Origin: an uncultured Prevotellaceae bacterium
Lineage (GTDB): Bacteria; Bacteroidota; Bacteroidia; Bacteroidales; Bacteroidaceae
DNA: 64,000 nt
Assembly (NCBI GenBank): GCA_900314715.1
Contig: OMWI01000007.1
Location: 43,841 to 107,840, forward strand
Direction: 5' to 3'
This document shows positions 53,248-64,000 of the stretch, piece after piece. The notes beneath the pieces are model-generated. The model did no database searches. It worked only from the letters and a program-made list of their open reading frames with translations, and had not been told where the DNA came from. Each line of letters begins with the position of its first letter. Position 1 is the stretch's first letter. The translations under genes were made by a program, and so were the position numbers.

Positions 53248-54459
53248 ATGAGAAATAAAATCCAAATGACCACTCCGCTCGTGGAGATGGATGGCGACGA
53301 GATGACTCGCATCTTGTGGCAAATGATAAAAGATGAATTAATCCTTCCTTTCGTTGACCTCAAAACGGAGTATTACGACCTTGGTTTGGTGAAACGTGAT
53401 GAGACAAATGACCAAATTACCATTGACTCTGCCGAAGCTACGAAGAAATATGGTGTGGCTGTGAAATGTGCTACCATTACGCCTAATGCTCAACGTATGA
53501 CGGAATACAACCTGCATGAAATGTGGAAGAGTCCTAATGGAACCATTCGTTCTATCCTCGATGGTACCGTGTTCCGTACACCTATCACTATTCCAAGCAT
53601 TCACCCTGCCGTGAAGAATTGGGAGAAGCCAATCACGATTGCTCGTCATGCTTACGGTGATGTGTATAAGAGCGTGGAACTCCGTGTGAATGAACCTGGT
53701 GTTGCTAAGTTGGTATTCGATGGCGAAAGTGGTGAACATCAGGAAGTGGTGATTCACAATTTCAAGGGCGAAGGAGTATTGCAAGGAATGCACAATGTGG
53801 ATAAGAGCATCCGTTCTTTCGCACATAGTTGTTTCAAGTTTGCGCTCGACGTTAACGAAAGCGTTTGGTTCTCTACTAAGGATACTATCTCCAAGAAGTA
53901 TGACGCACAATTCCGTGTCATTTTCGACGAGGTATTCCAAGAGTATAAGGATGAGTTCGAAAAACGTGGATTGGAGTATTTCTATACACTTATCGATGAT
54001 GCCGTTGCACGTGTTATCCGTTCGAAAGGTGGATTCATCTGGGCTTGCAAGAACTACGATGGCGACGTGATGAGCGACATGGTCAGCACGGCATTCGGTT
54101 CGCTTGCCATGATGACTTCCGTACTTGTTTCTCCTGATGGCAATTATGAGTATGAGGCTGCCCACGGTACCGTTACTCGCCACTATTACAAGTATCTACA
54201 AGGTGAGGAAACCAGTACCAACCCAATGGCAACTATCTTCGCATGGAGTGGGGCACTCCGCAAGCGTGGAGAGAAAGATGGTATCAAGGAACTCATGAAC
54301 TTTGGCGACCAACTCGAAGCTGCATGTTTCGATACACTCAATGAGGGCATTTGTACCAAAGACCTCGTAAACCTCATGGAAGGCATTGAACCAAAGGCTG
54401 TCAACTCCGCAGGTTTCATCGCAGCTATCCGCGAGCGTTTGGAGAAAAGATTGGCATAA
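53248..54459 (+). CDS. icd: NADP-dependent isocitrate dehydrogenase (eukaryote-like homodimeric type)
   Basis: VEMDGDEMTRILW, KCATITPN and NYDGDVMSD; 403 aa. Confidence 0.92.
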   Translation: MRNKIQMTTPLVEMDGDEMTRILWQMIKDELILPFVDLKTEYYDLGLVKRDETNDQITIDSAEATKKYGVAVKCATITPNAQRMTEYNLHEMWKSPNGTIRSILDGTVFRTPITIPSIHPAVKNWEKPITIARHAYGDVYKSVELRVNEPGVAKLVFDGESGEHQEVVIHNFKGEGVLQGMHNVDKSIRSFAHSCFKFALDVNESVWFSTKDTISKKYDAQFRVIFDEVFQEYKDEFEKRGLEYFYTLIDDAVARVIRSKGGFIWACKNYDGDVMSDMVSTAFGSLAMMTSVLVSPDGNYEYEAAHGTVTRHYYKYLQGEETSTNPMATIFAWSGALRKRGEKDGIKELMNFGDQLEAACFDTLNEGICTKDLVNLMEGIEPKAVNSAGFIAAIRERLEKRLA

Positions 54460-54490
54460 AACAATTACCTTTTACACATACACATAAAGA

Positions 54491-54527
54491 AAATCCGCTG
54501 AGTCTTTCATGATTCAGCGGATTTTTT
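54491..54527 (+). terminator. Rho-independent terminator of the cit-acn-icd unit
   Basis: aaatccgctga / tcagcggattt form a perfect 11-bp stem with a 12-nt loop, followed by a T-run. Confidence 0.85.
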
Positions 54528-54682
54528 AGCACACAAAACGTACTGTGCAATGATACGTCATATATACTTACGCTCCTAACGATGCATTGTAGCGTAATCC
54601 TTTTTAATTGATTGTTGTCCGCTAAAACTATTCAAAATCGTCCGAAAAGCCTTTGTCTGCATACAATCCAATGATGTTCTAT

Positions 54683-54850
54683 CGGCTCAGTCGATATTTA
54701 GTAGGGGAATTAAGATTGAATCTTATTCTTTGCCGTAGTTTCATATCATTGAATTGGCTATCTATTTGAGAAAGGAGAAATGCCTACGGCATCTTCCATG
54801 CATGCTTTGATTATCTAACTATTTTCCCCTACGAAAAAACGACTGAGCCG
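54683..54850. repeat. 168-bp element bounded by 27-bp imperfect inverted repeats, with nested hairpins
   Basis: cggctcagtcgatatttagtaggggaa (54683-54709) versus ttcccctacgaaaaaacgactgagccg (54824-54850). Inner pairs are gccgtag/ctacggc and aagatt/aatctt. It abuts the mgtC stop codon. Confidence 0.8.
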
Positions 54851-55522
54851 TTAATTCTCTATATTCTCAATACTTACGCCATCGAATTGGTCCATGAGGT
54901 CAATGATGCGCATTTCGTATTTGTCGCGCTTAATTTTGATGTCCATGTTCACGCGATAGACTACGCCAGAAGCAATGTGCGTCTCCTTCATGCTATATGA
55001 ATCGAGTTCCATTCCGTCATTGCGTAGGTTATCAAGTATCTTACGAATGTCTTCTTGTGTGGGAGAAGTAAAGACCACGTTGATGATGCGCTTGCCAAAT
55101 CGGTGCAATATCCAGTTGAATGCCTCAAGACTTATCAGTACCAATACGGTAGACGAAATGGCAAGTAAATACATCCCACCTCCACACGTTAAACCGATGG
55201 CTGCCGTTACCCATAGGCCTGCTGCTGTGGTAAGTCCCTTCACCACATGCTTTTGGAAGATAATCGTACCAGCGCCGATGAATCCGATACCCGTTACCAC
55301 TTGTGCCGCGATACGCGATACGTCCAAACGATGTTCGGTAGAGATAAGTGCCCCTTCGAAACCGTATGCGGAGATAACCATGAAAAGGGCCGAACCTAAG
55401 GCTACGAGGAAGTGGGTGCGGAATCCTGCTTCCTTTGAACGATATTCACGTTCCAATCCAATAATACCGCCTAATACGGCTGCTATGGTAATTCTTAAAA
55501 TGAAATCTGTTGTCATTGACAT
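54851..55522 (-). CDS. mgtC: MgtC/SapB-family membrane protein
   Basis: ILRITIAAVLGGIIGLEREYRSKEAGFRTH is the MgtC signature; 223 aa. Confidence 0.88.
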   Translation of the reverse strand: MSMTTDFILRITIAAVLGGIIGLEREYRSKEAGFRTHFLVALGSALFMVISAYGFEGALISTEHRLDVSRIAAQVVTGIGFIGAGTIIFQKHVVKGLTTAAGLWVTAAIGLTCGGGMYLLAISSTVLVLISLEAFNWILHRFGKRIINVVFTSPTQEDIRKILDNLRNDGMELDSYSMKETHIASGVVYRVNMDIKIKRDKYEMRIIDLMDQFDGVSIENIEN

Positions 55523-55534
55523 AGGAGTTGATTT

Positions 55535-56617
55535 TTATGAGTTTTGTTTTTTAGGAATGAATAACGAAAGAAGAATGCTGACGGTCAATACGGAGACAAT
55601 GACCAACAGCGACCATATTGCATCGATTTCCACGTAATCGTGGAGTAGGAGTTTGACACCAATGAAAAGCAGCAATATGCAGATGCCTGGTTTGAGAAAG
55701 CGAAACTTGTCTGCTATTCCTGCCAACAGGAAGAACATGGCACGCAATCCAACGATGGCCAGAATGTTGGAGAAGAACACCACGTAAGGGTCGAGCGATA
55801 CGGAGAAGGCAGCAGGTATGCTATCGAATGCAAAGACGATGTCTGCTAATTCGATGAAGATAACCGTTACCAACAAGGGCGTGATACACCATTTTCCCCC
55901 TTTGCTCTTTGTTGCCACTTCCATTTCACCATGAGTCTTCTTGGCTCGAACGAAGAAAGCATCACCATGAAAATGCGGATAGATGCGGAAGAACTTGGAT
56001 AGGAGTCTAACGGCAAAATGATTTTGCACGTCAATGGCCTCTTCTTGTTCTTTTTCAAAGAGAATCTTGATGCCATTGTATATGAGCAAGAGTCCGAACA
56101 CCAATAATATCCAGTCGAATCTCGCAATGAGTGAAGTTCCTACGAAGATGAAGATGAAACGCAATACGATAGCTCCAAAGATACCCCAATTGAGAACGTG
56201 CTGATATTCCACTTTGCTCACACCGAACGAGGTAAATATGAGGAGCATCACGAAAAGATTGTCTACCGACAATGTCTTTTCCAAGAGATAAGCGGAAAGA
56301 TATGCGATAGACATATTGTGACGATACAATGATACACCGCCTTCAAAGTCGTTGGTATCAATATGGAGGTGAGAGGCATATCGTTGAGTCACGTCTTGCA
56401 AGTCGCCCATGTTCTCTATGCCATGTACCATATCACCGTGAAACCACAGGAAACCAGCGAAGCAGAATGCAAGGGCAACCCATACGGCCGTCCACAATCC
56501 CGCTTCCTTCATGGACACCTCGTGGGCTTTGCGGTCGATGACCAACATGTCGATGAGCAAGATACCCACGATGAAGGCAATGAATAGGACAAAGAATATC
56601 GTTTCTGTTGAAAACAT
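55535..56617 (-). CDS. terC: TerC/Alx-family integral membrane protein
   Basis: Multi-TM with the LSVDNLFVMLLIF and ELADIVFAFDSIPA duplicated TerC motifs. Confidence 0.85.
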   Translation of the reverse strand: MFSTETIFFVLFIAFIVGILLIDMLVIDRKAHEVSMKEAGLWTAVWVALAFCFAGFLWFHGDMVHGIENMGDLQDVTQRYASHLHIDTNDFEGGVSLYRHNMSIAYLSAYLLEKTLSVDNLFVMLLIFTSFGVSKVEYQHVLNWGIFGAIVLRFIFIFVGTSLIARFDWILLVFGLLLIYNGIKILFEKEQEEAIDVQNHFAVRLLSKFFRIYPHFHGDAFFVRAKKTHGEMEVATKSKGGKWCITPLLVTVIFIELADIVFAFDSIPAAFSVSLDPYVVFFSNILAIVGLRAMFFLLAGIADKFRFLKPGICILLLFIGVKLLLHDYVEIDAIWSLLVIVSVLTVSILLSLFIPKKQNS

Positions 56618-56669
56618 ATTATTATCAATGTGTAAAACAAAGTGAAGTCATAAATAACATTTCATGATG

Positions 56670-56677
56670 CAAAAATA
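56670..56677 (-). promoter_or_regulatory. -7 promoter box (TAttTTTG) for terC-mgtC
   Basis: Exact TAnnTTTG, ~53 nt upstream of the terC ATG. Confidence 0.5.
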
Positions 56678-56867
56678 CAAAATAAAAGTGAATTGGTTTA
56701 TTAGAATAAACACTTTTTTGTGGATTGTCAAGTTTAACATAGATAATTTACATGCAGTGACATGATTTTATTGCTGATTGTTCGTTATATACAAGTTATC
56801 TATAAGACATCTACAAAAATTTTTATAATTTTTCTCCATAATAGAATTATAAATGTAATTTTTTGTT

Positions 56868-56875
56868 TATCTTTG
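56868..56875 (+). promoter_or_regulatory. -7 promoter box (TAtcTTTG) preceding the candidate structured RNA
   Basis: Exact TAnnTTTG with a T-rich upstream region. It is the only exact box I find on the plus strand between 56618 and 57434. Confidence 0.5.
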
Positions 56876-56879
56876 CAAC

Positions 56880-57307
56880 AGACTCTCAATTTCTTTTAGA
56901 CTAGGTGCATCATAAGACTTGCATTAAATCACTAAGAGAAGATATTCCACGCCGAGCCAAGTGAGGCGAAAACTGCTATAACAAGGTGGGTATTGGGTGG
57001 GAGAGAGTCGTTAAATATATAGTAAAAAGGCGTTTACTTAGACGCTCATCTCTACGTTCCAAACTTCGAACATCTGGAAACCCTGTAGTTGATGACGCAA
57101 CAGTAGATGTCCTCGGGATGTGTATATACATGTTCCCTTGTTTGCAAATTGGGTATTTGATTTAGATATGCCTAATATGTTGTTTTGCAAGGGTGTATTA
57201 TATTCATATCGGCGTGGGCTTCGGAGTTGCTTATCTTTACAGGGTGGCAAGTTCGAAGGCCAGGAACGTGAGATAAGTGACAGGCACGAATCTCACGCTT
57301 CTTTTTT
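56880..57307 (+). ncRNA. Candidate ~430-nt structured RNA of unrecognised class (stand-alone RNA or long attenuating leader of the downstream operon)
   Basis: Bounded by a -7 box and an intrinsic terminator. Local G+C is ~50% (hand count) against ~25% in the flanks. Several long-range complementarities: 56881-87/57003-09, 56947-53/57211-17, 57081-87/57238-44, 57135-40/57188-93. No convincing ORF. Confidence 0.5.
57267..57307 (+). terminator. Rho-independent terminator at the 3' end of the candidate RNA
   Basis: cgtgagat / atctcacg form an 8-bp stem (plus an inner gtg/cac), followed by cttctttttt. Confidence 0.75.
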
Positions 57308-57434
57308 ATAATAAAGTTAGTGTGATTTTTGAGTTTTGTGAGAATCATTACTAATTCTTATAATAATTATGGTAAAAGTTTTTAGTTTTTTCTTTAATCG
57401 AAGTAACTTGTTCTTGTATCACAAAGTTGCAGGT

Positions 57435-58223
57435 ATGAGGCGATATGCTGTCGCAACAGCTATTCTATTAGTGACTTTTAGCTCTTCAGTTTCTGCTCAA
57501 GAAAATCCATGGATATTTGGATTGTATACACATGGATACCATTTTATCACAGGTAACATCCTGTCTCTTGCTAGGCAAATTGTGAATATTCCAATAGCTA
57601 AGGCAACAAATGGAGCAGCTTCTTTTGATCTAATTCCATTTAATCTTCATTACATGAGTTTCAAAGATAATGGTGAAAATGTGGATTATAAAATGGGAAA
57701 TCCGTATGGTTTTACAGCGTATGATTTGTTTAATGATTTGGAAGTAGGTGTTAAATTTGGGTGGCAAGGAGCCCAGTCTCCAATAGGTGCTTATGTGTAT
57801 GGTGCATATAGTATTAATCAACACAAAATGCGTTTCTTGGGTGAGCAAGAATATAGCAAGCATAAAATCCAAAGTTTCAAAGCTGGCATAGGTGTAAGAA
57901 TTTCTCCTTTAAGGTATTTGATGGATGATTATGATTGGTGTCCAATTATAGAATTGGGAACAATCTATGTACATAATTTTATGTATAAAGGTCCTAATGG
58001 AAGTGACATTGATCAGTTAAATAATGGTATGCGCACCTCATATGCCATTGGAGTTCAATTTGACGAAGGAGAACAGACTGTATTGGCATGTATGGATATT
58101 GCACACTACAACCTATTTAATAAAAACTATACACCCGATGATGGGTTCTGGTTTCCATACGCTAACTTCAAAAATCGTGATTTTTACTTTAGTATACGAT
58201 ATAGTAAAACTTTAGATTTTTAA
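57435..58223 (+). CDS. Secreted outer-membrane beta-barrel-like protein, paralog A
   Basis: Signal peptide MRRYAVATAILLVTFSSSVSAQ, alternating amphipathic strands, C-terminal Phe. Paralogous to 61920..62690. The track start at 57369 is less likely. Confidence 0.6.
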   Translation: MRRYAVATAILLVTFSSSVSAQENPWIFGLYTHGYHFITGNILSLARQIVNIPIAKATNGAASFDLIPFNLHYMSFKDNGENVDYKMGNPYGFTAYDLFNDLEVGVKFGWQGAQSPIGAYVYGAYSINQHKMRFLGEQEYSKHKIQSFKAGIGVRISPLRYLMDDYDWCPIIELGTIYVHNFMYKGPNGSDIDQLNNGMRTSYAIGVQFDEGEQTVLACMDIAHYNLFNKNYTPDDGFWFPYANFKNRDFYFSIRYSKTLDF

Positions 58224-58228
58224 TTAAT

Positions 58229-58636
58229 ATGAATATGAAAGTGATGAAGTGTTTATTTAATTTTTTATTATCATTGATAATATGCAATATCTTATGCTTG
58301 AGTTGCAAAAAAGATGATTTTAATCCAAGTCCGTCAGTACCATTTAATATAGTATGTAATGATTCGATACTTCATAATGGTGACTCTTTGTATGGACGTG
58401 TTGTTGTCAATAAGAATAAGATGATAAATGGTACAGTAATTAAGAAGATTGATTGCAGATTAGGAAATATTGTTATTGGTACTTCAGAGGATAAGTTTGA
58501 GTGCCCATTTGGGGTTCGATTGAAAGATAAGCCTATTGGAAAGCATACTTTCTCAGTTATTATCAAATGTGAAGTTCCTAATTATGACGAGACTTTTTGG
58601 AGACATGATTATAAAATGATTACTATAAAACAATAG
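58229..58636 (+). CDS. Small lipoprotein, unknown function
   Basis: Lipobox ...ILCLSC-KKDD; 135 aa; beta-rich composition. Confidence 0.6.
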   Translation: MNMKVMKCLFNFLLSLIICNILCLSCKKDDFNPSPSVPFNIVCNDSILHNGDSLYGRVVVNKNKMINGTVIKKIDCRLGNIVIGTSEDKFECPFGVRLKDKPIGKHTFSVIIKCEVPNYDETFWRHDYKMITIKQ

Positions 58637-58640
58637 AATT

Positions 58641-59186
58641 ATGAGAATGAGTCTTTTATTATTGTGGAGCATGTTATGCTCAGTTACTTCATTTGCGTCT
58701 TGCAATGGAGCAAAGGAAAAAGGTGGAAAGTATGAGGTGCGACCAGATTCAGGGGTGTACTACATGCTTGGGAAAACTATGTCGGACATAATGTTTAGTC
58801 CTACTAAGGTGACTTGTTACACCATTCTAGGAAAATCAAAAGTTTCTAAAGAAGATTATGAGTTGGAGCCACATTATGTTAGAGATTCTTTGATAGCAAA
58901 ATTGACTTCAAATCAAATAACACTATTGCAGTTTAACCTTCTCTCTGATGAGGAAAATTATAAGGAAGATTCCATCAAAGTAAAGAGTCCTTATGTTCCC
59001 TGTATAGAGATCTGTTTTGAAAAGAAAAAACAACAGCCTGTTCATGTGATTATTTCTTTCTCTGATTATAGTTGGACTGTTGTTTATGATGACAAACGCC
59101 AATTTAATTGGAACTATGCAGATAAAAGGCAGATAGAACGTTTGTGTAAAATGATTATGGGTGACGTGTTTAATAAAAATAAATAA
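58641..59186 (+). CDS. Lipoprotein, unknown function
   Basis: Lipobox ...VTSFASC-NGAKE; 181 aa. Confidence 0.6.
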   Translation: MRMSLLLLWSMLCSVTSFASCNGAKEKGGKYEVRPDSGVYYMLGKTMSDIMFSPTKVTCYTILGKSKVSKEDYELEPHYVRDSLIAKLTSNQITLLQFNLLSDEENYKEDSIKVKSPYVPCIEICFEKKKQQPVHVIISFSDYSWTVVYDDKRQFNWNYADKRQIERLCKMIMGDVFNKNK

Positions 59187-59201
59187 GGTAATTAAAATCA
59201 A

Positions 59202-60353
59202 ATGTTTATGAAGCGATTATTATATTTATTAGCCATTATGGCATTAAGTAACTTTTATGATGTGAAGGCAGAGAATGTAAAGGTACATGCTATAGTGTTT
59301 TGTAACACCAACGATCAAAAAATTGGTGAAAGCTGTAAAAATGATCAAATTCGATTTATTGAACAGATGGGAATCATAGAGACGGCCCTTGGCTGCGATG
59401 TTGATTGGATGAACATTTATACAGGCAAAGAATGCAACAAGCCAAATTTGGAAAGTGCAATGTCAAATTTAAAGTGTAATTCTAATGATGTCGTATTCTT
59501 CTATTATTCAGGTCATGGAGTTCATGCAAAAGCCGACCCTGCTGATGGTTGGCTTCCTCAAATGTGTTTAAATTACGAATCATATGATCAAGATAAATTT
59601 GTGCCTGTAACATATGTAAGGGATAAACTTGCATTAATGAATGCAAGGCTGAAAATTATCATTACTGATTGTTGTAATAATGAGGCATCTTGGGTTACGG
59701 TAAAAGGATTGATAGCTTCTGATGAAAGTACACCAAATGTTGATGACATAGATGTTGGGAAATTGAAGAAGCTATTCATTGATAGTCGTGGTACAGTGAT
59801 TGCCACAAGTAGTAAACGAGGTCAGATGTCTTTAGGTCCTAAAGAGGGAGGGTGCTTTTCAATGGCATTTTGGGATGAAATATATCAAATAGAGCATGGT
59901 AAAGGGTCTCCAAACTGGAAATCTGTTATGGAAGAAACAAGAAAAAGGACGTTATCATATACAAATAACAAACAAGAACCAGAATTTAAGGCTGATGTTA
60001 ATATTGATGGCTATAATTCTTCACTCCCCCCCCAAACAACTCCAAATCCTGTCATTATTGCTGTAGGTGAAAATGAACTTGGTGAGGCTTTTAAGCAAAT
60101 AGTTAATCCATCATATAGTAGGATGGAACGTAAAAATATGGTAGGAGGCATTGTACAAAGATTGTTTGATCCTAAAGCCCAGGTAATTATGGTAGGGAGA
60201 AATCTTACATCTAAAGTTGGTGAGCCCCAAAATATATCAGATTATCTCAATGAATTGGCACTGAGTAAGACTGTAAGAGGAATTAATATTATAAGAGCGA
60301 ATAAAAGCAATTCAGGGAAATATGATTACATTATTGTTAGTGAAATAAGATAA
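59202..60353 (+). CDS. Secreted caspase-like cysteine protease (clan CD, peptidase C14-like) with an extra ~100-aa C-terminal domain
   Basis: Signal peptide MFMKRLLYLLAIMALSNFYDVKA. A hydrophobic strand plus SGHG (VVFFYYSGHG, His105 at 59514-59516). A hydrophobic strand plus DCC (KIIITDCCNN, Cys157 at 59670-59672). The spacing is caspase-like. Confidence 0.7.
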   Translation: MFMKRLLYLLAIMALSNFYDVKAENVKVHAIVFCNTNDQKIGESCKNDQIRFIEQMGIIETALGCDVDWMNIYTGKECNKPNLESAMSNLKCNSNDVVFFYYSGHGVHAKADPADGWLPQMCLNYESYDQDKFVPVTYVRDKLALMNARLKIIITDCCNNEASWVTVKGLIASDESTPNVDDIDVGKLKKLFIDSRGTVIATSSKRGQMSLGPKEGGCFSMAFWDEIYQIEHGKGSPNWKSVMEETRKRTLSYTNNKQEPEFKADVNIDGYNSSLPPQTTPNPVIIAVGENELGEAFKQIVNPSYSRMERKNMVGGIVQRLFDPKAQVIMVGRNLTSKVGEPQNISDYLNELALSKTVRGINIIRANKSNSGKYDYIIVSEIR

Positions 60354-60368
60354 TACATATTAATTGTT

Positions 60369-61025
60369 ATGAAAACAAAAGTTTTATTAATTTTGATGGT
60401 TTTTTGTGCATTTGTAATTAATGCTTATGCACAGAGTGGGTATGAACTTTCACAAGAAGAGAGGGAAACAATCGAACAACGTGTCATTGAAAAGATTAAT
60501 GACTTCCTTTCTTATCTCCCTGAAATAGCGGCAAAAAGCGACAAGTCAAAAGAAGAAAAGGAACTCGCATTAAATTATATTGATTTGGCCTTGAAACTTT
60601 TCATAGGAGAAGGAAAAGATTATCAATATAGAGATCAAGCTGGGGTCTGGCGTTGGCATGAAGCAGTTAAGATGCAAACTACTTCAAGGGGAAGGGCGAA
60701 TAGACCACAGCCTATGGTAAGGTATTTAAATAAGTTAATGGCTTTGCCATACCAAACAGTGGAAGTTGACACTTGCTCTGCAGTAAGGATAAATAAAAAA
60801 CTTCATCCTACTGGTGATGGTCGATATACCGGAAGTGCTGTGTTTATTCAAGCTTTTCGTGCAACTCGTGATGGACGGCTCGTCGTTAATGACAAGGATG
60901 CCAAGCAAGTTACAATTTATGTTGAACGTAAAGATATAGATTTGGGACCTATTGGTGGAATAGAGACTGTTTGGATTATAAAGCTTGGCGATATTAGGAT
61001 TACTACTAGCTGGAGCAGTATGTAA
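60369..61025 (+). CDS. Secreted protein, unknown function
   Basis: Signal peptide MKTKVLLILMVFCAFVINAYAQ; 218 aa. Confidence 0.6.
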   Translation: MKTKVLLILMVFCAFVINAYAQSGYELSQEERETIEQRVIEKINDFLSYLPEIAAKSDKSKEEKELALNYIDLALKLFIGEGKDYQYRDQAGVWRWHEAVKMQTTSRGRANRPQPMVRYLNKLMALPYQTVEVDTCSAVRINKKLHPTGDGRYTGSAVFIQAFRATRDGRLVVNDKDAKQVTIYVERKDIDLGPIGGIETVWIIKLGDIRITTSWSSM

Positions 61026-61104
61026 ATTAATTATTTAATACTGAAAGCCTTGGGTTATATAAATGTAATCCCAAGTGCTGTAGTGAAAGAGACAAGGTTG
61101 TATT

Positions 61105-61923
61105 ATGAGAGAAATTTTGATAATTATCTTAATCGTATCATTAGCAATGGATAGTAAAGGACAGTCGGTGTCAATGTTTGGCACGGAAGATTATTATGAT
61201 ACAATATTCCGTCAAAGTGTTAAGTCTTGTGATGAATTTATGTGTAGATTCAATGAAGAAGAGTTTTTTCCTGATTTAGAGAAGAATGATCCTCAGTTAG
61301 GACAAAAAAACTTCTTGATGCTATTTGACTATGAAATGGCAAAAGATAAAAATAAAGACGATTTTTTGAAACAAGTTTTTTTATTTTATGATGCAGTTAA
61401 AACAAATGGGACAAAACTGAAATATGAAAGTAAAAATTGGTATGCAGAACAGCGTATCATGTTCTTCTTTAATAAAAAACCAATCGAATTATGTTTAATC
61501 TTACAACCAGATAAAACGCCCAAAAAACTTTCATGTTGGACAGTTGTTGGTGTTAATGGATTAGAGAAAGTTGGATATAAGGATGCTGTTGATAGAATGG
61601 CTATTAGCCCAGAACAGCATGAAGCGGAATTCATTGAGTTAGAAAGTGTTTTTAAGTTTAACTCAAAAAACTTTTCTCAATTTAGAAGTTACAATTGTCA
61701 TCTTGATGCATTAAGTTATTTCTTTGCGCTTGTGGAAAAGGGAATGTTAGTATTTGACAAACGTATATCCACTACTTTTCATTTCTTTGATGTGCCCTCA
61801 TATGTGTTTAGTGTAAATTATTTTAATAGAAAAAAATCAAATACAGGATGGTTAATCTCTGAATATAAAAAAGTCAGTTATGACGAAAAAGAGTCAATCT
61901 TAAATAAATTATTAAGCAAATGA
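61105..61923 (+). CDS. Secreted protein, unknown function
   Basis: Hydrophobic N-terminus MREILIIILIVSLAMDSKGQ; 272 aa; ATGA overlap with the next gene. Confidence 0.55.
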   Translation: MREILIIILIVSLAMDSKGQSVSMFGTEDYYDTIFRQSVKSCDEFMCRFNEEEFFPDLEKNDPQLGQKNFLMLFDYEMAKDKNKDDFLKQVFLFYDAVKTNGTKLKYESKNWYAEQRIMFFFNKKPIELCLILQPDKTPKKLSCWTVVGVNGLEKVGYKDAVDRMAISPEQHEAEFIELESVFKFNSKNFSQFRSYNCHLDALSYFFALVEKGMLVFDKRISTTFHFFDVPSYVFSVNYFNRKKSNTGWLISEYKKVSYDEKESILNKLLSK

Positions 61924-62690
61924 AAAAAATAATACCAATACTTATTTGTTTCTTGTGTGTACATTCCAACATAATGGCACAATCAGAAATAAAGTTTAAG
62001 AATCATCATCTGATTTTTAATTGTGATATCGCATCAGGTAATCCATATATCCTTGCAGCATCAAGTGTTAGTACAGGATTAATAAACTATTATTTGTTAA
62101 ATGATGCTTTTTTTGAAAACTCTTTTGCATATAACTTATATTCAACAAATGTGGATGGTTTAAAAGCTAAGACCATGAACCCTATGGGATTGACAGCAAG
62201 TGAACTATTTAATAATTTTCAAGTAGGTTTAAAACTTGGTTATCAGACTTATAGTCCAGAATTCATAAATGTTGGTCTTTATGTGTCTGCACATTATAAA
62301 ATAGATCAATTCAAGATAGGGACAAATGATGATAATATGGCAAAGCATCGAGCACAAAGAGCAATATTTGGAACAACTGCTTTGTTGTCTTTGGGAAGTA
62401 TGGGACAACCATCGCGTATAATAATTGAGGCAGGATGTCGTTATAGCTTTGGTCTTGCTTACAAGTCACCATTAGGAAACGATAAAGATCAACTAAATGA
62501 TGGATTTGTTAGTCATTTTGGAATCAAGATAGCAAGTAGAGGAATGTTACAAAATATTGGTATTTATGCGGATATCAATCATTTCAATTTGTGGAAAGAA
62601 TATCGTACGAATCAAAAATTAAATAATTGGACTGTGGGTGTAACATGGACAATTACTCCTCAACAAGCTGATAACAGAAAAAAAATGTAG
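61920..62690 (+). CDS. Secreted outer-membrane beta-barrel-like protein, paralog B
   Basis: Signal peptide MKKIIPILICFLCVHSNIMAQ. Blocks shared with 57435..58223: NPMGLTASELFNNFQVGLKLGYQ vs NPYGFTAYDLFNDLEVGVKFGWQ; DKDQLNDG vs DIDQLNNG; DINHFNLW vs DIAHYNLF. Confidence 0.6.
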   Translation: MKKIIPILICFLCVHSNIMAQSEIKFKNHHLIFNCDIASGNPYILAASSVSTGLINYYLLNDAFFENSFAYNLYSTNVDGLKAKTMNPMGLTASELFNNFQVGLKLGYQTYSPEFINVGLYVSAHYKIDQFKIGTNDDNMAKHRAQRAIFGTTALLSLGSMGQPSRIIIEAGCRYSFGLAYKSPLGNDKDQLNDGFVSHFGIKIASRGMLQNIGIYADINHFNLWKEYRTNQKLNNWTVGVTWTITPQQADNRKKM

Positions 62691-62693
62691 ATT

Positions 62694-63545
62694 ATGAAAA
62701 TAATTATATCTTTTGTTTTTTTGTTGATTCCATCTTTTGCATTTTCTTCGGCCATAGATAATCAATTTCTTTCAAAAGCTGAAAGGAAGGTGGAAACTAT
62801 GTATCAAGATTTGAAGATACTTTCTGATAAGAACTCTTCAAAAGCACGTGAGATTAGAAGAACTTTTGTGGACAAGTATTTTAAGGAATCTGATCAGAAT
62901 TCTCCTAATGAATTTAAGTATCTTGGATATAATAACCCAGATGTTCAAGCTTTTAAAACAGACATTGCAGCTCGTGGATATGTTAACTATTTCTATGATA
63001 TGTTTCGAAACCAAAAATATGCAAACTGTTCTTTTAGCTTTCAGAGGAGATATAGCAACATTATACATGGACCAGAATTTAAAAAGAATGAAGCTCCCCC
63101 CAAATTGGCTCAAGTTATTGTAAGAAAAGTTTATTCTCGAAATGGAAAACCATTTCAAGTATTTGAAGATACATTAATCGTGGGATTGGAGCAAATGAAA
63201 GTACATAAGTGGGCCAATAAGATAAGTCGGCACCACATTGGCGATTTCGAAAGTAATCAAATATTGGATGTTGAGCAGATGAAAGATAATGCTGATTTAG
63301 CGTATGATAAAAAGAACTATCATAAAGCATATCAAATTTATCAGTCAATAGTTAACAAATATCCAAATGAGGGAGATCCGTATTATCGGATGGCAATTAT
63401 GCTCTATAAAAAGAACTATGGGGAATATTTAAATAAAAAAGAAAGGCAAAAACTTATCCTTGATTATTTGGATAAGGCAATAAATCTTGGCACTTCTACA
63501 ACCAAAGCATGTGCTGACAATATGAAATATTGGATTACATGTTAA
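62694..63545 (+). CDS. Secreted protein with a C-terminal TPR-like helical segment, unknown function
   Basis: Signal peptide MKIIISFVFLLIPSFAFSSA. The C-terminal AYDKKNYHKAYQIYQSIVNKYPNEGDPYYRMAIMLY looks TPR-like. Confidence 0.55.
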   Translation: MKIIISFVFLLIPSFAFSSAIDNQFLSKAERKVETMYQDLKILSDKNSSKAREIRRTFVDKYFKESDQNSPNEFKYLGYNNPDVQAFKTDIAARGYVNYFYDMFRNQKYANCSFSFQRRYSNIIHGPEFKKNEAPPKLAQVIVRKVYSRNGKPFQVFEDTLIVGLEQMKVHKWANKISRHHIGDFESNQILDVEQMKDNADLAYDKKNYHKAYQIYQSIVNKYPNEGDPYYRMAIMLYKKNYGEYLNKKERQKLILDYLDKAINLGTSTTKACADNMKYWITC

Positions 63546-63714
63546 TTGTTTAAGTTATGCGTAGCAAATTTGTTATAAATGACAGCCTATGTCAAGTAGG
63601 AAGATATCTCGATTTTTATTTGCTTCAAAGCTAATAAGATTTGCTTTTTTCTGTCCATATAGTATTTGCCGTGAAAAACCTCACAAACTATTTTTCTATT
63701 CATTGAAAAAAGAG

Positions 63715-63722
63715 TATCTTTG
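63715..63722 (+). promoter_or_regulatory. -7 promoter box (TAtcTTTG) for the helicase gene
   Basis: Exact TAnnTTTG, ~22 nt upstream of the candidate GTG start. Confidence 0.45.
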
Positions 63723-63743
63723 TGCCCAATACTGGATAAAACG

Positions 63744-64000
63744 GTGACAATAGAAGACCTTTGCGGACATATTCGCCATCATTTCGGTTTCGTACCAACC
63801 ACGGAACAAGAGAATGCGCTACAGACGTTTTCCCGTTTTATGTTTGATCGTGAGAAACATACTCTCATGATTCTGCGCGGTTGTGCAGGCACGGGAAAAA
63901 CTTCCTTGGCTGGTGCTTTCGTGCGTACGATGATGAAGTTGGGACAAAAAGTGGTGTTGATGGCACCAACGGGAAGGGCTGCAAAGGTGTTTTCGCTCAA
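63744..64000 (+). CDS. Partial RecD/Dda-like (AAA_30) ATP-dependent DNA helicase, N-terminus only
   Basis: My own translation: VTIEDLCGHIRHHFGFVPTTEQENALQTFSRFMFDREKHTLMILRGCAGTGKTSLAGAFVRTMMKLGQKVVLMAPTGRAAKVFSL. It has Walker A (GCAGTGKTS) and APTGRAAK. The frame opens at 63675 with no in-frame ATG, so a GTG or TTG start is assumed. The track's minus-strand ORF 63779..64000 is antisense noise. Confidence 0.7.
   Translation, partial: MTIEDLCGHIRHHFGFVPTTEQENALQTFSRFMFDREKHTLMILRGCAGTGKTSLAGAFVRTMMKLGQKVVLMAPTGRAAKVFSL

Follow-up and report, generated by a model that had tools for sequence, protein, structure and literature searches.

To our knowledge, the bacterial caspase-like proteases characterised so far (the gasdermin activators, the Craspase/CHAT enzymes and those linked to EACC1) are all cytoplasmic, and the bacterial relatives of the caspases are currently seen as cytoplasmic executioners or activators in immunity. 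Selective proteolysis in the bacterial envelope is the work of other enzymes: in NlpI-Prc of E. coli and LbcA-CtpA of Pseudomonas, a lipid-anchored scaffold of the tetratricopeptide repeat (TPR) type at the outer membrane acts with a periplasmic serine protease of family S41, and both of these are housekeeping systems. Here we describe an operon of eight genes, g1 to g8, in which a caspase-type protease (g4) and all seven of its partners carry export signals. It occupies positions 57435-63545 of the window, by which we mean the whole 64,000-nt stretch of DNA analysed, taken from contig OMWI01000007.1 of an uncultured Prevotellaceae bacterium (GCA_900314715.1). Our preferred and still tentative reading, to which we give a probability of roughly 45%, is that the operon encodes an outer-membrane-anchored, periplasm-facing regulated protease complex. 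In such an architecture it would resemble NlpI-Prc and LbcA-CtpA, but its protease is of the C14 type, its scaffold would be tied to a beta-barrel, it appears to be an accessory mobile cassette, and it has no sequence relationship to either system. An earlier prediction made on this DNA (the original prediction) had already set the cytoplasmic location of the characterised enzymes against this locus. That contrast stands, but exported homologs as such are not new, since a survey of 2012 noticed many prokaryotic caspase homologs with probable signal peptides, without functional study (PMC3501461), and none is known to have been characterised. What is new here is a caspase-family module in what appears to be a new compartment, with partners that are entirely unannotated.

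The operon consists of eight open reading frames (ORFs), all on the + strand, behind a structured leader RNA:

56851..57312, + strand: leader RNA, structured, ~450 nt, with a promoter at its start and an intrinsic terminator at its end
57435..58223, + strand: g1, exported putative small outer-membrane beta-barrel, paralog of g7
58229..58636, + strand: g2, small lipoprotein, probably surface-exposed (lipobox, acidic residues after the Cys)
58641..59186, + strand: g3, lipoprotein, caspase partner by conserved adjacency, probably periplasm-facing (lipobox)
59202..60353, + strand: g4, Sec-exported C14 (caspase/orthocaspase) protease (PF00656) with a g5-like C-terminal domain
60369..61025, + strand: g5, exported member of an unannotated family, apparently a stand-alone copy of the caspase accessory domain
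61105..61923, + strand: g6, exported two-domain alpha/beta protein without a fold neighbour in the PDB
61920..62690, + strand: g7, exported putative outer-membrane beta-barrel, paralog of g1
62694..63545, + strand: g8, exported, its N-domain specific to the family and its tail of the TPR/Sel1 type (from a PDB profile search)

The product of g4 matches Pfam Peptidase_C14 (PF00656) over residues 61-264 with 48.7 bits, against a gathering cut-off of 21.4. A search of 5.8 billion proteins gave 150 relatives, and PF00656 is present in all of the 120 that were listed except for two of partial length (P0065 and P0069); the only name that any of them bears in the source records is 'caspase family protein', from Bacteroidaceae and Bacteroidales metagenome-assembled genomes (MAGs). 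The caspase-like His105/Cys157 dyad of the original prediction is borne out, H105 (YYSGHG) and C157 (TDCCN) being invariant, together with C158, in 37 sequences with identities down to 32%, and the family profile weakly matches metacaspase crystal structures around the His motif. In distant proteins that join a caspase to a g5 domain the Cys motif is GMCDN or GMCCN, the equivalent of C157 being the single Cys retained; since this residue is kept universally, even in the distant fusions, it is the likely nucleophile. By these sequence criteria g4 is a C14 (caspase/orthocaspase) cysteine protease with an intact dyad. It shares the Peptidase_C14 domain, the SGHG motif and the nucleophile Cys with the other bacterial orthocaspases and metacaspases (MEROPS C14, clan CD), but is unlike them in being Sec-exported, in its TDCCNN motif, in its private C-terminal domain and in the all-exported operon to which it belongs. 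That C-terminal domain (residues 285-383), which had been noticed as an extra domain in the original prediction, aligns to the g5 family (hhalign probability 84%, E 7e-6 against the g5 core, with deep alignments). In two proteins, P0402 and P0427, an exported Peptidase_C14 domain is followed by a C-terminal g5 domain; these fusions and the likeness of the g4 C-terminus indicate that g5 is a free-standing copy of a caspase accessory domain. At E<=1e-3 the g5 family counts 317 representatives in a set of 1.84 billion proteins.

None of the described caspase systems accounts for this gene set. The gasdermin-activating systems do not fit it, there being no significant non-C14 Pfam match among the operon products, all of which carry export signals, and neither does the type III-E Craspase (TPR-CHAT Csx29), for which no CHAT or Cas match was found and in whose place the TPR is on a separate exported protein. 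The model for EACC1-associated caspases (NF047832) scores 34.6 bits with a cut-off of 140 and no partner match, and PADLOC-DB v2 returns a 26-bit caspase-domain match, a 13-bit KwaA match and nothing for the other six products. In full-text literature searches aimed at caspase homologs that are exported, periplasmic or associated with Bacteroides, no such system was found to be described or characterised. The opinion that this is no described system has thus held up in Pfam, NCBIfam, PADLOC, PDB profile searches, Foldseek (with two models) and the full-text literature.

With respect to gene layout, the ORF listing recovered the coordinates, strand and gaps given in the original prediction (5, 4, 15, 15, 79, -4 and 3 nt from g1 to g8, g7 sharing its first 4 nt with g6), and the block is AT-rich as claimed, with a G+C fraction of 0.28-0.40 as against 0.42-0.48 in the upstream isocitrate dehydrogenase, MgtC and TerC genes. 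An alternative in-frame ATG for g1 at 57369 would add 22 residues (57369-57434); the start at 57435 is the likelier because the signal peptide is where the homologs start. The operon of this genome finishes with g8, beyond which a gap of ~175 nt is followed by an AAA_30/UvrD_C helicase gene (~63720-64000, + strand) that continues past the end of the window; longer contigs from this genome show a convergent BspA-type LRR_5 gene after the helicase gene.

To what extent the eight genes belong together can be judged from their homologs. We collected 85 loci encoding relatives and searched the translations of their ORFs with iterative profiles that started from the eight proteins of the window; the conservation counts given here refer to 31 distinct Bacteroidales loci, lower denominators being the loci that could be evaluated. 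Their sources are Prevotella, Bacteroides ilei, Palleniella muris, Tannerella and Parabacteroides, and many MAGs of rumen, rabbit, chicken and human origin. The complete order g1-g8 recurs in L001/L002, L006, L007 and L009, with caspase identities of 46-65%. More generally, g3 is directly upstream of the caspase in 28/31 loci, g5 follows it in 27/28 and g6 is found in 24/26, while g8 is present in 14/23, a barrel of the g1/g7 family in 15/25 and g2 in 9/31. The upstream barrel and g2 occur in only about a third of the loci, g1 being restricted to full-length operon variants. The order g3-g4-g5-g6 is kept in ~30 loci as caspase identity falls from 72% to ~25%, and gene junctions often overlap or are very short. 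The eight-gene operon therefore stands as a layout, but the conserved unit is smaller: a core of g3-g4-g5-g6, commonly extended by g8 (the TPR/Sel1 protein) and a barrel. The original prediction had staked itself on the neighbourhood recurring in other genomes, and it does so, the caspase gene co-occurring with g3, g5 and g6 and often with g8 and a barrel; none of the contrary findings that it had named was made.

The flanks of these loci are heterogeneous between genomes, no Pfam family being found in more than 3/135 neighbours, and a conserved flanking context (defence island, capsule locus or integrase) was rejected on this ground. A phage or mobile-virus origin was also rejected, there being no close relative in the IMG/VR viral contigs. 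The unrelated flanks and the low G+C suggest instead a self-contained cassette that has spread horizontally. Two further arrangements point to a modular reshuffling of this cassette: in L016 (13888-15215) a second caspase-like gene is followed by a g2-like gene, and in L024 (11498-14077) an 859-residue TPR/Sel1 protein is also matched by the caspase profile. Outside the Bacteroidales, members of the g3 family (profile scores of 50-130 bits, the lipobox Cys kept in many) adjoin caspase genes as well, downstream of the caspase in ten Cytophagales loci and upstream of it in Thiomargarita/Beggiatoa, SAR324 and Dokdonia (L051, L053, L055, L057, L058, L062, L064-L067, L069-L072, L074, L079 and L081-L084). 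As it recurs across phyla, the g3-caspase pair ranks as the most ancient component of the system. The Cytophagales and Chitinophagaceae caspases that are paired with g3 have an unannotated N-terminal extension of ~210 residues, and a DUF4384 domain is found on the SAR324 caspase and on one scanned Thiomargarita caspase.

Export was assessed by a heuristic check, in which all eight products have a K/R-containing N-terminus and then a hydrophobic stretch from residue 3-13, features that are retained in 92-100% of the collected homologs; the claim that every product has a signal peptide or lipobox agrees with this. The signal peptide of g1 ends VSA/QE, and lipoboxes are found in g2 (CLSC) and g3 (FASC). 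These two lipoproteins differ in the residues after the lipid-bearing Cys. The lipobox Cys26 of g2 is followed by KKDD, and in 8/9 g2 homologs acidic residues occupy +2 to +5 relative to the lipidated Cys (KKDD, KEDE, SDDEE and similar), K-(D/E)2 being a surface-export signal of Bacteroidota lipoproteins (PMC5080379). The g3 homologs have basic or neutral residues at these positions and lack the export signal. This difference suggests that g2 is probably surface-exposed and that g3 probably faces the periplasm.

The partner proteins are free of annotation. In scans of the eight proteins and their family members against Pfam, NCBIfam and PADLOC, TPR/Sel1 was the only significant family beyond C14, and apart from it the seven partners of g4 gave no significant match; as predicted, no ATPase, nuclease or toxin family was found for any of the eight products. 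Where the source records name the partners at all, for example in Bacteroides gallinaceum, they call them 'hypothetical protein', and PDB profile searches with g3, g5, g6 and the g1/g7 barrel family found nothing. All-against-all hhalign comparison of the mature proteins revealed no hidden paralogy beyond that of g1 with g7 and, with deeper alignments, that of the g4 C-terminal domain with g5. Structure searches had been proposed in the original prediction, and Foldseek was run on the AlphaFold2 models of g3 (predicted local distance difference test, pLDDT, 84; predicted template modelling score, pTM, 0.76) and g6 (pLDDT 81, pTM 0.76). The g3 model is a compact globular alpha/beta fold whose best PDB match has an E-value of 0.38, with template modelling (TM) scores of <=0.26; the g6 model, also compact and globular, has nothing at E<=0.001 in the PDB or BFVD and TM scores of <=0.26 in the PDB. 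Both are thus confident models without a fold neighbour in the PDB. In the g6 family residues K40, E44-F45 and R48-F49-N50 are invariant, and P169, H172, N246 and G248-I251 are kept in >=90% of members.

The remaining partners would provide a connection to the outer membrane. That g1 and g7 are paralogs, as had been proposed, is supported by an identity of 26% and by their recovery with one profile; their designation as barrels is plausible, but falls short of proof. They have 8-10 amphipathic beta segments in ~240 residues, and the C-terminus of g1 (...LDF) ends in Phe. None of 25 members of the family has a Pfam match, while g7 weakly matches the NCBIfam TDE1717 outer-membrane barrel (E 0.002, below the cut-off); in the scan of the family one member matches this model, likewise below its cut-off. 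The TPR-like tail that had been seen on g8 was found again by profile search, alignment A5 matching TPR and Sel1 structures at positions ~190-250. In eight 'short-form' operons g6 is followed by a single protein of 456-799 residues. Its first ~220 residues are homologous to the N-domain of g8 (hhalign 96%, E 1e-9), its middle consists of Sel1/TPR repeats and its C-terminus is a PF13568 outer-membrane barrel in 4/5 proteins scanned (36-41 bits, threshold 27), of ~180-230 residues. Through this fusion the g8 scaffold is linked with the outer membrane, and the position of the TPR region, N-terminal to the barrel, suggests that the scaffold is placed in the periplasm. Because the fused barrel occupies the equivalent position, g1/g7 are the likely barrel partners of g8 in the long-form operon.

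In several lineages the cassette is found beside signalling genes. On the contigs with Bacteroides gallinaceum-type g3 (L092-L094), genes for FHA, PP2C, a Ser/Thr kinase with FHA and a 1267-residue kinase precede g1-g8; this last kinase, read by eye from its sequence, has one transmembrane (TM) helix and a long YD-repeat-like outer part. On the 3' side of g8 the same contigs have an extra Sel1 protein, a Peptidase_C1 + DUF4384 protease and IS66, and the Sel1 and C1 genes are also present in L009. In L013 g3-g4 are directly followed by FHA, kinase and PP2C genes, L056 has a PP2C gene just upstream, and in SAR324 g3 is followed by the caspase with DUF4384 and then by a CHASE2 adenylate/guanylate cyclase. 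Among the candidate roles listed in the original prediction, a regulated proteolysis in the envelope, or signalling, is made likelier than the simple assembly of a surface structure by these recurring kinase, PP2C, FHA and cyclase neighbours.

The observations can be joined as follows. A horizontally spread cassette would build an envelope protease complex at the periplasmic face of the outer membrane, with Sec-exported g4, its dyad intact, as the enzyme and g3 as its cognate tether and/or inhibitor. The free copy of the accessory domain, g5, and g6 would be made together with g4; the TPR/Sel1 protein g8 and a small barrel (g7, and in the window variant also g1) would serve as membrane anchor and scaffold, and g2 would be an optional surface lipoprotein. 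Rather than digesting in bulk, g4 would make limited and regulated cuts in exported proteins, whether these are encoded by the operon itself or reside in the envelope. Such proteolysis appears, in several lineages, to be coupled to transmembrane Ser/Thr-kinase, PP2C, FHA or CHASE2-cyclase signalling, and transcription of the operon would have to pass the terminator of the leader RNA.

Several considerations weigh against this scheme. No partner has a function that was recognisable by family, profile or fold searches; the barrel fold of g1 and g7 is predicted rather than demonstrated, and no homology between them and the fused PF13568 barrel is detectable. The role of g3 as tether or inhibitor is proposed by analogy, and its model matches no solved inhibitor in the PDB. 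The kinase, PP2C, FHA and cyclase neighbours belong to a minority of loci and none is in the window, the leader RNA is shared by so many unrelated operons that it gives little information on the trigger of this one, and g4 could be released or surface-exposed rather than periplasmic.

A more specific version of the scheme, which we put forward as a rather doubtful one, is that the outer-membrane-anchored periplasmic caspase is held by its lipoprotein, of a fold not seen before, until an envelope signal (phage entry, a competitor toxin or damage) makes it fire; it would then cleave envelope proteins and in some lineages relay the event across the inner membrane via FHA/PP2C/kinase or the CHASE2 cyclase. 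If this were true, bacteria would have a caspase pathway outside the cytoplasm, the first of its kind and an envelope counterpart of the cytoplasmic caspase-based immunity. Even short of that, a conserved and mobile module with an intact caspase-type enzyme sited in the envelope would extend this protease family to another compartment and probably to another logic. The module brings with it a dedicated lipoprotein, a TPR scaffold and four or five unannotated protein families, two of them without a known fold neighbour, and since its hosts include three or more species represented by named isolate records (among them Bacteroides gallinaceum, Bacteroides ilei and Palleniella muris) the hypotheses are directly testable.

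Of the alternatives to a regulated protease complex, one that we regard as unlikely is the maturation of a surface structure, in which the protease trims secreted g5, g6 or g8 and a fibre, coat or adhesin is then built from them, either on the barrels or by passage through these. Analogues would be the gingipain processing of type V pilins and FapD/FapF in functional amyloid. The export of all products, the two barrels and the surface-export signal of g2 are what one would expect of such a system, the AT-rich, patchy block resembles variable surface loci, and the leader RNA also precedes capsule operons (NusG paralog and flippase) and BspA-LRR surface-protein operons. However, there is no match to a pilin, curli or Fap family in Pfam or NCBIfam (none to CsgG/E/F/A or to FapF/FapD), and the g3 and g6 models are compact and globular, unlike pilins or amyloids. 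A parallel is offered by the attachment complex of the type IX secretion system (T9SS), which combines the clan CD sortase PorU with the PorV/PorQ barrels and PorZ, much as the operon combines a clan CD peptidase with two barrels and accessories, but the barrels here are far smaller, g4 lacks the T9SS C-terminal domain, and no PorU/PorV/PorQ/PorZ, C25, FimA/Mfa or T9SS C-terminal domain match was found in Pfam or NCBIfam at E<=1. A combination of TPR and barrel is also known from Slam and from the exopolysaccharide porins BcsC, PgaA and PelB, and the short-form protein, with its N-terminal region, Sel1/TPR repeats and C-terminal barrel, is built likewise; its barrel is nevertheless of the small PF13568 type, not DUF560 or a 16-18-strand porin, the TPR_Slam model reaches only E 0.064 (14 bits, cut-off 35), and no glycosyltransferase or surface-lipoprotein cargo family is present in the operon. 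Barrels of this size are unlikely translocons, a barrel behind a TPR/Sel1 scaffold suits anchoring better than secretion, and in many loci the g3-g6 core occurs without a barrel of the g1/g7 family.

It is also improbable, in our view, that the operon is an envelope defence, with g3 holding the caspase inactive until phage entry or a periplasm-delivered toxin frees it to destroy proteins of the invader or of the cell's own envelope (abortive infection). Proteases of the caspase family recur as effectors in bacterial conflict systems (PMC7159879, PMC8195603). The mobile, patchy and AT-rich nature of the cassette and the tight linkage of a candidate inhibitor, g3, would suit such a role, and some loci adjoin toxin-antitoxin-like or AAA_14/DUF4143 genes. 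FHA/PP2C/kinase modules, moreover, regulate other envelope-triggered responses. Against this, PADLOC sees a weak caspase domain and nothing in the partners, the flanks show no enrichment of defence genes, the operon has no sensor NTPase, and IMG/VR holds no close relatives on viral contigs that would hint at an arms race.

Rather less probable still is a secreted or vesicle-borne degradative protease serving nutrition or host interaction, with g3 as an inhibitor by which the cell would protect itself while the protease crosses the periplasm. An exported cysteine protease behind a lipoprotein gene and the gut and rumen distribution are compatible with this, and the Bacteroides gallinaceum-type operon even adds a second exported protease, the Peptidase_C1 + DUF4384 protein. 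The same order of a small lipoprotein and then a tightly coupled exported protease is familiar from the potempin/KLIKK pairs of Tannerella and the Bfi/C10 Bfp pairs of B. fragilis, where self-protection during transit is the plausible logic, as it is for the operon too, but neither has homology to it and the g3 model matches no PDB entry. C14 enzymes are typically of the specific, limited-proteolysis type, neither a T9SS C-terminal domain nor a further export signal was found on g4 in NCBIfam, and a TPR-barrel scaffold and signalling neighbours would be unexpected for a digestive enzyme. Finally, that there is no single system, only unrelated hypothetical exported genes lying by chance beside a caspase homolog, is hardly credible: 7/8 products lack annotation, but the g3-g6 order survives among unrelated flanks over the whole range of caspase divergence, and two independent domain fusions join the components.

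The leader RNA upstream of the operon starts with a promoter whose Bacteroides-type -7 box is TATCTTTG (56868-56875), and its terminator has arms at 57267-57274 and 57290-57297 and a T-run at 57302-57307, implying that downstream expression needs read-through. With an nhmmer profile it was found upstream of the homologous operon, on the same strand, in 12 loci, mostly 42-83 nt before the first gene, be that g1 or g3. The RNA has four helices, one of which is a pseudoknot, CTTCGAAC/GTTCGAAG, that is swapped for TCTCGCA/TGCGAGA, TCTAGCA/TGCTAGA or CTTCGCA/TGCGAAG. The structure is backed by covariation: in all, 15 pairs are changed on both sides, 0/500 shuffles attain the observed value, and slid controls collapse; the many G-U pairs argue for an RNA rather than DNA repeats. 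Rfam gave no credible match on 56800-57400 with E<=10, nor on 54000-64000 with E<=1. An identity with the UpxY/ops leaders published for capsule operons was rejected, as these, unlike this RNA, are short pause elements (PMC11685472).

The original prediction had set an unusual RNA in front of the operon. This RNA is real, conserved and structured, but it is not private to the caspase operon: a pattern scan of metagenomes gave at least 120 loci (L096-L215), all with the full-length RNA (143-255 bits), before many other operon types, so that a dedicated leader had to be rejected. Among the 120 loci listed, BspA-type LRR (leucine-rich repeat) genes follow it in 35 and a NusG paralog in 13, several of these then having a polysaccharide flippase, that is, capsule-type operons; a sulfatase-family enzyme and others also occur. 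The members, from gut Bacteroidales, measure 270-450 nt and each has its own promoter and terminator. Standing before such varied operons, this appears to be a widespread, general leader of surface- and envelope-related accessory operons, and through it these bacteria may control their surface-related operons in a general way. A NusG paralog after the leader is an arrangement typical of capsule operons. One such gene (UpxY-like, PF02357; 5509-6192) lies between leader and g1 in L003; a NusG paralog as regular predecessor of the operon was rejected, L003 being the only case. The same leader also stands before a second, different exported caspase of gut metagenomes, with a signal peptide and FFSGHG/ADACFAG motifs, in a conserved cluster of LytTR, FHA-TM-zinc-ribbon, caspase, zinc-ribbon-FHA and PP2C-TM genes. 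This LytTR-FHA-caspase cluster accounts for 5-8 of the 120 loci listed, and in L096, L102, L117, L153 and L187 it lies ~0.1-4.5 kb downstream of the RNA.

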